Part shown: piece after piece, positions 4,511 to 5,065 of the stretch
Layout: every line of letters begins with the position of its first letter
Position numbering within the stretch: the first letter of the stretch is position 1
Source of the DNA: PVC group bacterium
GTDB lineage: Bacteria > GCA-001730085 > JADFSZ01
Direction of reading: 5' to 3'
Length of the DNA: 5,172 nt
Assembly (NCBI GenBank): GCA_022560555.1
Contig: JADFSZ010000127.1
Location: 1 to 5,172, forward strand
Translations under genes and position numbers: made by a program
Notes under the pieces: generated by a model
Database searches by the model: none
The model's input: the letters and a program-made list of their open reading frames with translations, nothing else
Told to the model about the DNA's origin: nothing

Positions 4511-4669
4511 ATGATCATAGTTCGATCCATAAAAGAAATGAAAAATCGGGTTCTTAAGGCCAGAAAGAAAAATAAGAAGATTGGGTTTGTGCCCACGATG
4601 GGGGCTTTGCATGAGGGGCATATGAGCCTCATCAGACGGGCCATAAAAGAATGTGGTTTTGTTGTTGTT
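4511..4669 (+). pseudogene. panC: 5' fragment of pantoate--beta-alanine ligase (pantothenate synthetase); the rest of the gene is missing
   Basis: Only the first ~50-53 codons of a ~280-codon family are present. Homology is lost within 4652-4685. This is a sub-feature of the composite ORF above. Confidence 0.7.
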
Positions 4670-5065
4670 TTGATTGTTGTTGGGGTTTTTGCCATTCTTA
4701 GAGGATCTGATAGTGAAAGTGCTGGCGATGCTGATTCTGGCGTTATAGTTGCGGTTAGTGACGCTGGTAATGACAGGGACGTTTCCGCTTCCGAAACTCC
4801 TATACAGAGTAAGACTCATACTGTGGAGATATTTCTTTATGGATTTGAGCCTCCTGAGTTAACTATCAATAAAGGGGATACAGTTGTTTGGAAAAACAGA
4901 ATGCCTTCTACTTTCCATACTTTGATTTCTCCTCAACCACCGAGGGAAATAGATATAGGCAGGATAGATCCTATGGGAGAAGGCAGCCACACTTTTGAGG
5001 AGGAAGGTGAGTTTAGGTATTTATCTGTCACCATAGAAATATTCGGGACCATTACAGTAGCATAG
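4511..5065 (+). CDS. composite ORF: PanC N-terminal ~50 aa fused in frame to a hydrophobic anchor, acidic linker and ligand-poor cupredoxin-like domain
   Basis: Residues 1-53 ([53 protein letters not shown]) match the pantoate--beta-alanine ligase N-terminus, including the VPTMG and HxGH motifs. The expected SIFVNPxQF and the remaining ~230 aa of PanC are absent. In their place come [14 protein letters not shown] (hydrophobic), [13 protein letters not shown]...[15 protein letters not shown] (linker) and [27 protein letters not shown]...FHTL...[19 protein letters not shown] (cupredoxin-like beta-sandwich pattern). There is no convincing SD before ATG 4511. The ORF is intact, but whether it is a genuine expressed gene is unresolved. 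Confidence 0.55.
   Translation: [184 protein letters not shown]
4652..4691. repeat. 40-nt G/T-only low-complexity tract with (GTT)n units, at the homology breakpoint
   Basis: The read-off is tgtggttttgttgttgttttgAttgttgttggggtttttg. Every base is G or T except A4673. It encodes the hydrophobic [13 protein letters not shown] segment, and on the minus strand it produces the Asn/Gln-rich low-complexity shadow ORFs. Confidence 0.85.

Follow-up and report, generated by a model that had tools for sequence, protein, structure and literature searches.

The locus analysed here raises the question of how one open reading frame (ORF) can begin as a pantoate--beta-alanine ligase (PanC) and end, in the same frame, as a membrane-anchored protein of cupredoxin fold. 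The window, that is the whole stretch of DNA analysed, is an entire 5172-bp MAG contig ('PVC group'), whose bases 1-4669 carry lysA'-dapF-dapA-dapB-DUF1559-purQ-spacer-panC 5' end and are authentic Omnitrophota-like chromosome. At its end panC runs on into the hybrid ORF (Table 1), named 'pantoate--beta-alanine ligase' by NCBI. A preliminary description made from the letters alone offered two readings of the locus, a gene fusion in which an enzyme fragment is reused as a topology signal and, as the alternative, an assembler mis-join of two genomes. The evidence gathered here favours the latter: the join is probably the artefactual, chimeric end of a metagenome contig and not a gene fusion.

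Table 1. Features of the hybrid ORF and its surroundings (positions in the 5172-bp window).
Feature	Position	Strand	Remarks
purQ-panC spacer	4286-4510	+	Common to sibling-strain contigs with intact panC from 4334 on
Small conserved ORF inside the spacer	4340-4474		57-aa counterpart in L015
Hybrid ORF, 184 aa	4511-5065	+	Stop TAG 5063-5065; NCBI protein MCH7505304.1
Genuine panC 5' end, codons 1-53	4511-4669	+	beta1, HxGH motif, helix, start of beta2
HEGH (HxGH/HIGH-type) nucleotidyltransferase motif of PanC, residues 34-37	4610-4621	+	CAT GAG GGG CAT
Hybrid hydrophobic, uncharged stretch of 16 residues, C48-L63	4652-4699	+	Left 6 residues from PanC strand beta2, right 10 from the putatively foreign TM helix
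(GTT)3 run GTTGTTGTT	4661-4669	+	Encodes VVV; last bases shared with sibling panC genes
Putatively foreign 503-bp segment	4670-5172	+	5'-truncated small cupredoxin gene, downstream spacer, first codons of next gene; reaches contig end
Asp/Ser-rich low-complexity linker (ends ETPIQSK)	4700-4813	+	Predicted disordered: pLDDT 54-65, no secondary structure
Cupredoxin-fold beta-sandwich domain (predicted), ORF residues 102-184	4814-5062	+	AlphaFold2 pLDDT 94-98, nine strands
Non-coding motif TAACTCCAAAAGGACAACATACGAAAGATTTATAAA	5096-5131	+	Kept downstream of three Cys-less cupredoxin genes (alignment with L013, L014)
Next ORF start (ATG AGA TTT GTG AAT AAA ..)	5153-5172	+	Preceded by GAGGA at 5145-5149; cut by contig end

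The N-terminal half was assigned to PanC from the outset, and the profiles agree. Pfam Pantoate_ligase (PF02569) matches residues 3-57 with ~61-62 bits against a cut-off of 20.7 (E 1.3e-16; 61 bits in the Pfam check of that assignment), and the cytidyltransferase-related domain TIGR00125 matches residues 26-55. The protein P0274 shows 100% identity to ORF residues 10-53, and the PanC sibling proteins P0002 (full-length) and P0003 (frameshift-split) 83-84% identity to the ORF over the matched region. The Pfam match takes up only positions 2-56 of the 268 in the profile, and the sibling genes run on as VVVSIFVNPLQF after the shared part while the window does not, which confirms that panC is truncated after codon 53. 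Full-length PanC proteins have ~270-285 aa with a SIFVNPxQF block and a C-terminal subdomain; in contrast, the ORF lacks this block and everything beyond it, including the pantoate and beta-alanine binding blocks and the C-terminal domain. As judged from what it encodes, the hybrid ORF cannot be an active PanC enzyme, and its score with TIGR00018 (panC) is 53.7 bits, far below the equivalog cut-off of 212.75; on these two grounds the NCBI product name is wrong.

Beyond the PanC part, the frame goes on to encode an anchor, then a linker and finally a domain of cupredoxin fold, as had been read from the letters and as the ORF sequence, AlphaFold2 and Foldseek now support. A word-index homology search with the C-terminal 131 aa gave only two marginal plastocyanin matches, and an exhaustive HMMER search was required to find the cupredoxin family. 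Single-sequence HMMs on the domain were weak (E 0.001-0.2), with PF00127 at 12.8 bits (cut-off 21.2) and PF13473 at 12.0 bits (cut-off 27), both under the gathering score, and the single-sequence AlphaFold2 model of the whole ORF was uninformative (pLDDT 39). With the family alignment, from which the domain model of Table 1 was predicted, the assignment of the cupredoxin fold is firm: Foldseek of this model against amicyanin/plastocyanin gives E ~1e-7, probability 1.00 and a target-normalised TM of 0.70 (0.64-0.75), and the family profile matches amicyanin with E 4e-24. Amicyanin and plastocyanin (PF00127, PF13473; PDB 1aac, 1bxu, 5fc9) have the same fold, and the KGDTVxWxN motif, a second motif and the first His ligand (His136) are conserved. 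The remaining ligand columns, read from the family alignment and the profile-amicyanin alignment (amicyanin block YHCtPHPfMrG), have Ser172 for Cys, Ile175 for the second His and Ile177 for Met. Since three of the four ligands are missing, a type-1 copper site is impossible, and the term 'cupredoxin-like' that had been given to this half is right as far as the fold is concerned. Unlike amicyanin and plastocyanin, the ORF product is predicted to be held in the membrane by a helix near its N-terminus, to which a disordered acidic linker connects the domain; linkers are equally variable in its native relatives.

The position of the join follows from a comparison with the four sibling contigs that contain this stretch (L001, L002, L015 and L016), in which base 4669 is the last one common to all four panC genes and 4670 the first discordant. 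This 4669/4670 breakpoint lies in the (GTT)n tract, within the interval 4652-4685 where it had been expected. In ungapped comparison, identity to L015 is 99.3% over the 150 nt to the left and 34.7% over the 150 nt to the right. The blastn matches to the four siblings stop at 4669-4680: positions 120-466 of L015 correspond to 4334-4680 of the window with 94.5% identity, and the matches to L001 and L002 start at 4388 and 4374, respectively. Thus, as expected of a chimera, homology is lost abruptly at a single point while the relative remains colinear beyond it (L015, with all four siblings in agreement). The junction is ~500 bp from the contig end, and its surroundings vary among strains: depending on the sibling, purQ, a purL-like gene or other DNA lies upstream of panC. 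No direct or inverted repeats linking the junction to other parts of the contig were found, and thus nothing points to an inverted amplification chimera inside it; a scan of 4250-5172 found neither a sigma-70-like promoter nor an intrinsic terminator. As for panC itself, it is present on six independent sibling contigs from different samples (L001, L002, L015, L016, L019 and L020) and is followed in the last four by panD and aspartate dehydrogenase (aspDH). The three siblings that reach both ends have panC-panD-aspDH intact, and the panC of L002 is frameshifted.

A conserved gene fusion should recur, and no protein spanning both halves was found elsewhere. The cluster of the hybrid ORF has one member on one contig among 5.8 billion protein clusters; of 1063 matches to the full ORF, all others are PanC proteins of the ordinary kind that cover only 22-48% of the query, and an exhaustive search of 1.84 billion representatives with the C-terminal part yielded no other PanC-cupredoxin protein. 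These results bear directly on the proposal that the PanC fragment has been co-opted under selection as a cytoplasmic tail and signal-anchor that exports the cupredoxin-like domain outside the membrane. What speaks for it is physical plausibility only, as the N-terminal tail is basic, a hydrophobic stretch follows and the flank on its C-terminal side is acidic. Against it, besides the lack of a second example in those 5.8 billion clusters and 1.84 billion representatives, native relatives own an adequate anchor, with a basic N-terminus and a TM helix, so that nothing would be gained. The PanC part and a functional panC allele share 99% of their nucleotides, too many for selection to have had time to act, and near-identical strains keep panC intact. 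In addition, a 49-residue Rossmann-fold fragment is unlikely to fold alone, in line with the pLDDT of 39 of the single-sequence model. We therefore consider a selected fusion hardly credible; the reuse of an enzyme fragment as a topology signal, put forward in the preliminary description, found no support, and the search for full-length homologs returned no protein with the same architecture.

With respect to the origin of the 3' segment, its gene and downstream spacer are colinear with L013 (GC 33%) and L014 (GC 36%), the contigs that encode the Cys-less anchored cupredoxins P0150 (134 aa) and P0176 (145 aa), with 51% and 40-47% identity to the window copy. A motif search allowing <=3 substitutions found full-length matches to the 5096-5131 motif running on into TTTATAAA only in these three loci, and the 3' half of the motif resembles, in its letters, an archaeal BRE+TATA promoter for the next gene. 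The side to the left of the junction matches Omnitrophota-labelled PanC and the right side only 33-36% GC contigs; Omnitrophota-labelled contigs yielded no relative of the 3' gene. GC3 is 0.32 in the 3' part, against 0.40-0.48 in every one of the seven coding pieces upstream, and the synonymous-codon likelihood z is -3.8 vs -2.1 to +1.4 in 11 leave-one-out upstream blocks. The compositional discordance of a chimera is therefore found in GC3 and codon usage; total GC has no step across the junction (0.44 vs 0.40), and only GC3 and synonymous codon choice separate the two sides. Taken together, these traits suggest that the donor of the 3' segment was another organism, possibly an archaeon. None of the collections searched contained the 3' gene in native, un-fused form; in the GTDB genomes and JGI metagenomes among them, a probe of PanC plus the C-terminal part retrieved only distant PanC genes and thaumarchaeal-type plastocyanins sharing the word HTFEEEGEF. 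A mobile element was also considered for the 3' segment and rejected, as blastn against plasmids and phages gave no match. On L013 and L014, ARAGORN found no tRNA; Rfam confirms, on the margin of L014, a tRNA truncated at its 3' end, by visual reading tRNA-Asp(GUC), which gives no pointer to the domain of life. The proteins flanking the cupredoxin genes on these two contigs, a GATase and a Tyr-rich orphan, are uninformative for the taxon.

The same data may be read in another way, in which the 3' segment comes from the same Omnitrophota genome, as a laterally acquired or atypical gene for a small secreted protein elsewhere on the chromosome, and was mis-joined by intragenomic mis-assembly or an amplification chimera. 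The similar total GC of both sides would agree with such a source, small exported proteins often have atypical codon usage, and the tRNA and flanking proteins of the closest relatives on L013/L014 give no taxon that would contradict it. This reading has to face a GC3 and a synonymous-codon usage that are outlying against all seven upstream coding pieces, relatives that were found on no Omnitrophota-labelled contig and of which the close ones are only on contigs of 33-36% GC, and a downstream motif that is BRE/TATA-like and not sigma-70-like. We hold it improbable, and whatever chance it has is part of the likelihood given above to an artefact and not additional to it.

Illegitimate recombination at microhomology is a real biological process as well, and the join could have arisen in one strain, in which horizontally acquired DNA with a 5'-truncated cupredoxin gene took the place of panC from codon 54 on at a G/T-rich microhomology. 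In that case panC would be a fresh pseudogene and the hybrid ORF an unselected by-product, with or without expression from the panC promoter. The sequence demonstrably shared at the junction does not exceed ~9-15 nt, which counts against an artefact and for such an event, because common de Bruijn assemblers work with longer k-mers; a pure graph mis-join then needs a longer, unseen overlap or a chimeric read. Any microhomology with the foreign gene would be in the (GTT)3 run or just left of it, and a longer overlap, if any, may involve the lost 5' part of that gene. The sequence also has no internal inconsistency and stays in frame, strains differ by rearrangements around panC, and the frameshift in L002 suggests that panC may be dispensable in part of the lineage. 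Moreover, the hybrid N-terminus, with a basic tail, 16 hydrophobic residues and an acidic flank, would obey the positive-inside rule. On the other hand, the hybrid is a singleton in all databases searched, panC is intact in a strain with 99.3% identity as far as the junction, so that the event would be extremely recent, the contig ends 500 bp past the join, and the foreign DNA retains foreign codon usage and the promoter-like motif of its low-GC relatives.

An intact panC-panD-aspDH contig probably within the same MAG also stands against a real event. This 8834-bp 'PVC group bacterium' contig encodes MCH7504845 (aspDH/DUF108), MCH7504846 (panD) and MCH7504847.1 (PanC, 277 aa, full length). The window proteins MCH7505299-304 have accession numbers 457 above these, the accession order fits contigs sorted by length, and another MAG from this submission series repeats the pattern; judged by accession proximity only, the 8834-bp contig very probably belongs to the same MAG as the window. 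Four of the first seven aligned residues differ between MCH7504847.1 and the window PanC, so that the former is a different allele or strain. In this sense, the earlier statement that no functional panC is encoded is valid for this contig as assembled and does not extend beyond it. Weighing both sides, we regard an accidental recombination as unlikely, although with a real chance of being correct. Its specific form, a very recent microhomology-mediated recombination in one Omnitrophota strain that exchanged most of panC for foreign DNA, possibly archaeal because of the BRE/TATA-like motif, and gave an in-frame hybrid in which the cytoplasmic tail and part of the signal-anchor of a cupredoxin devoid of a copper site come from PanC, is likewise unlikely, its chance being low. 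If true, the locus would offer a rare view of a gene fusion across lineages just as it arises, still unselected, in a lineage that may be losing pantothenate synthesis.

Returning to a chimeric contig end, which we favour, the last 503 bases would come from a different source of lower GC3 and would have been joined artefactually onto bases 1-4669, through either an assembly-graph mis-join or a chimeric library fragment. The joining site would be the short, low-complexity G/T-only tract, in which both sequences have codons for runs of valine. The 3' segment would then be an ordinary small gene for a membrane-anchored cupredoxin-fold protein that has lost its own first codons, those for Met, some basic residues and the N-terminal half of the TM helix. 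Joining on the same strand and in frame would have a 1-in-6 probability by chance; as the join is in frame, the gene caller made a single 184-aa ORF, whose NCBI name would then have been taken from the PanC-like first 53 residues.

If the join is an artefact, the end of one contig in a public MAG is chimeric and needs trimming at 4669/4670. MCH7505304.1 would count as PanC when the pathways of an Omnitrophota genome are reconstructed, though it cannot be active, and the hybrid ORF would mislead surveys of 'novel domain fusions'. The real biology left over is modest, a Cys-less anchored cupredoxin subfamily with a conserved promoter-like DNA motif beside the gene. This subfamily of membrane-anchored cupredoxin-fold proteins, small and rare, has by its sequences lost the copper ligands.

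Its members P0150 and P0176 have in common with the window copy the Cys-less C-terminal Y-[LI]-S-[VA]-x-T/I-E motif, the TM-linker-domain build and the downstream DNA motif. P0150 (starting MKRNDLVTF) and P0176 (starting MAKKEKNAVVGF) each open with a native Met and basic residues and have the TM helix in full, the helices of native relatives being 19-23 residues long after Met and basic residues; in the window copy, PanC residues 1-53 stand in the place of this native N-terminus. In metagenome benchmarks, inter-genome translocations are reported to be the most frequent type of mis-assembly and to rise with strain diversity (PMC9661791). The window, which was compared by sequence alone, differs from the translocation mis-assemblies benchmarked with metaMIC (PMC9661791) in that the visible shared sequence is shorter than typical k-mers. 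Like them, it changes abruptly in identity and codon usage at a short tract of low complexity close to a contig end, and several strains occur together in its population.

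The 184-aa open reading frame that starts as PanC and ends as a cupredoxin-like protein is most likely not real biology. We consider its junction likely to be an artefactual join, most probably one between two genomes. The sequence itself reads as the preliminary description had it, with a PanC start that continues in frame into a beta-rich domain. Residues 3-57 match profile positions 2-56 of 268 of Pfam Pantoate_ligase with 61 bits, which upholds the assignment of the N-terminus, and an HEGH motif lies inside this part (4610-4621). After V53, the SIFVNPxQF block of PanC is absent and the frame runs through a 10-residue stretch and an Asp/Ser-rich stretch into the beta-rich domain. 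The ORF scores 53.7 bits against TIGR00018, versus an equivalog cut-off of 212.75, so it is a PanC fragment rather than an enzyme, and the record MCH7505304.1, whose product name draws solely on the 53 N-terminal residues, is mis-annotated.

The window is one entire contig (5172 bp) of an NCBI metagenome-assembled genome (MAG) labelled 'PVC group bacterium', and all its genes lie on the same strand. The protein encoded between dapB and purQ has 177 aa, a prepilin-type N-terminal methylation motif and a C-terminal DUF1559 match slightly under the Pfam cut-off; its ATG and the dapB stop overlap by 4 nt. A second MAG of the series has an assembly break between dapB and purQ. The purQ-panC spacer holds a small ORF of 44 aa (57 aa in the sibling-strain contig L015, 87-260) whose C-terminal part, KLVSDFSEPKVMGNLAFQGSSLRMNESCVKKNA, is conserved between both. 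It has no Pfam match on record and could encode a small protein or be what remains of a gene.

Coordinates of the features in the window, and of the non-coding motif in the window and in two low-GC contigs (L013, L014)
Feature	Sequence	Position	Strand	Accession, name or basis
lysA C-terminus	window	to 463	+	
dapF	window	484-1305	+	MCH7505299
dapA	window	to 2218	+	
dapB	window	2237-3040	+	MCH7505301
DUF1559/prepilin-type protein	window	3037-3570	+	
purQ	window	3584-4285	+	MCH7505303
Small spacer ORF	window	4340-4474		
Hybrid ORF	window	4511-5065	+	MCH7505304, NCBI name 'pantoate--beta-alanine ligase'
Non-coding motif (TAACTCCAAAAGGACAACATACGAAAGATTTATAAA)	window	5096-5131		sequence comparison
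Non-coding motif	L013	501-538		sequence comparison
Non-coding motif	L014	797-832		sequence comparison

The closest PanC relatives (P0002, P0003, P0273 and P0274), encoded on short contigs from independent samples, show 83-100% identity over the common part, and by blastn the sibling DNA aligns with the window from within the purQ-panC spacer to 4669-4680. For L015, blastn gives 94.5% identity over window positions 4334-4680; just left of 4669/4670 the two sequences agree at 149 of 150 positions, and just right of it identity drops to 35%, which is the chance level. All four siblings read GGTTTTGTTGTTGTT followed by AGTATTTTTGTGAATCCG, whereas the window departs from GGTTTTGTTGTTGTT as TTGATTGTTGTTGGGG. 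This places the breakpoint where the (GTT)3 run ends, within the 4652-4685 interval originally proposed. The siblings carry a full-length panC with panD and an aspartate dehydrogenase gene behind it, an intact pantothenate block. The panC of sibling contig L002 has lost 1 nt from an A5 run (GGGAAAAAGAC, around 660-690) and is thereby split into ORFs of 183 and 100 aa; either the assembly is wrong here or panC is decaying in this strain.

The gene 5' of panC also varies among close strains, being purQ in the window (flank compared at 4286-4510) and a purL-like C-terminus in L016 (1-522; read by eye), while L015 has unrelated DNA left of position 120 (1-119); the panC 5' flank is thus a strain-variable rearrangement point. 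This rearranged neighbourhood, together with the panC frameshift in L002, slightly favours the alternative that the junction is real and arose by an accidental recombination in a single strain. We regard such an event as unlikely, and it keeps some weight because the artefact has two weak points: the sequence common to both partners at the junction is 9-15 nt or less, below usual assembler k-mers, and the native gene of the donor was not found in our searches.

The search for an intact panC elsewhere, suggested by the preliminary description, led to MCH7504847.1, a full-length PanC of 277 aa in the 90% cluster of P0002. It is encoded on an 8834-bp contig, also labelled 'PVC group bacterium', together with panD (MCH7504846) and aspartate dehydrogenase (MCH7504845). 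The accessions of these proteins lie 457 below those of the window and a second MAG of the series shows like spacing and length ordering (MCH7590528/530 on 3368 bp, MCH7590988 on 2372 bp), from which we infer that both contigs probably belong to the same MAG. MCH7504847.1 and the window PanC are identical over residues 15-53 and differ at 4 of the 7 preceding residues. These differences indicate a second allele and point to strain heterogeneity in the sample, a known cause of fragmented assemblies and a promoter of mis-joins (PMC9661791).

Regarding the 3' part, single-sequence HMMs gave a weak cupredoxin signal (E 0.001-0.2), and searching 1.84 billion representatives exhaustively with HMMER recovered 806 relatives at E <= 1e-3. 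AlphaFold2, with a 23-sequence alignment, models residues 102-184 as a nine-strand sandwich (pLDDT 94-98; linker 54-65). Foldseek matches this model to amicyanin and plastocyanin (E ~1e-7, probability 1.00, TM about 0.70) and the family profile matches amicyanin at E 4e-24, which bears out the cupredoxin-type pattern first noticed. To this we add that His136, the first ligand, is the sole copper ligand kept: in the Y-x-C-x-x-H-P-x-M block, Ser172, Ile175 and Ile177 stand in the Cys, His and Met columns, so there is no type-1 copper site despite the fold. By analogy with other ligand-less cupredoxin-like proteins, the domain probably has a non-redox role, e.g. binding or structural.

Among 5.8 billion clusters, the window's own record is the sole close match to the C-terminal 131 aa. 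The nearest relatives, P0150 (134 aa, 51%) and P0176 (145 aa, 40-47%), form with the window protein a three-member subfamily sharing a Cys-less C-terminal motif. Small membrane-anchored cupredoxin-fold proteins of this kind, without the Cys, second His and Met ligands, are very rare (3 members among 5.8 billion clusters); P0176 lacks the first His too, and the remaining amicyanin-like pattern is retained throughout (window 4814-5062, P0150, P0176). The next relatives, P0276-P0281, have copper ligands. All these relatives share one layout: a Met with a few basic residues, then a TM helix of 19-23 residues, a low-complexity linker and, at the C-terminus, the cupredoxin domain. The window copy begins mid-TM helix and is therefore an ordinary gene, 5'-truncated. 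A selected fusion reusing PanC residues as a topology signal is very improbable and finds no support: it has no second example, the native anchor already suffices, and the PanC fragment is almost identical in nucleotides to functional alleles.

The foreign character of the tail is also seen downstream. A non-coding motif of ~36 nt (TAACTCCAAAAGGACAACAnnnGAAAGnTTTATAAA) lies directly 3' of all three Cys-less cupredoxin genes, whose proteins are 40-51% identical, and is absent from every other fetched locus; its conservation beyond the gene makes the whole 503-bp tail colinear with L013 and L014. Between stop codon and motif the window has a 30-nt insert; in L013 and L014 the stop codon is the motif's own TAA. 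The 5' half (CTCCAAAAAGACAACA) is conserved. The 3' half, CGAAAG-A-TTTATAAA, 21 nt 5' of an ATG, looks like an archaeal BRE/TATA-like putative promoter of the following gene; a scan of 4250-5172 gave no sigma-70-like promoter. In L014, a tRNA truncated at the contig edge (1-62, - strand; Rfam 43.6 bits; anticodon loop CUGUCGC, read by eye as tRNA-Asp(GUC)) precedes the P0176 gene by ~300 bp; ARAGORN misses it because its 3' end is absent. L013 and L014 have a GC of 33-36%, and total GC in the window is nearly flat across the junction (0.44 vs 0.40 in the tail). Third-position GC is 0.32 in the 3' part vs 0.40-0.48 upstream, and its synonymous-codon likelihood under the contig's own model is z = -3.8, with 11 leave-one-out control blocks at -2.1 to +1.4.

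Of the two interpretations initially offered, topology-signal reuse is not sustained and the artefact is favoured by the step-like breakpoint, the intact panC of a sibling strain that matches the window at 99% as far as the junction, an intact panC block that is probably in the same bin, the foreign codon usage and downstream spacer, the position ~500 bp from the contig end in a strain-variable neighbourhood, and the singleton architecture. By chance, one join in six would be on the same strand and in frame, so no special explanation is needed for the open frame. Val/Ile runs with G/T-rich codons at the junction in both partners supply the low-complexity link. In practice, the contig should be flagged or trimmed at 4669/4670 and the product name of MCH7505304.1 corrected.

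Compared with known systems, the 5' part of the ORF is the true start of a PanC gene, whereas the ORF itself falls short of a PanC in length, conserved blocks and curated cut-off. The 3' domain is homologous to amicyanin and plastocyanin and alike in fold, but lies outside the type-1 copper proteins, with three of four ligands missing. As a whole, the contig fits an inter-genome translocation mis-assembly in its abrupt loss of homology and its compositional discordance, and probably in the presence of an intact copy of the interrupted gene in the same MAG.
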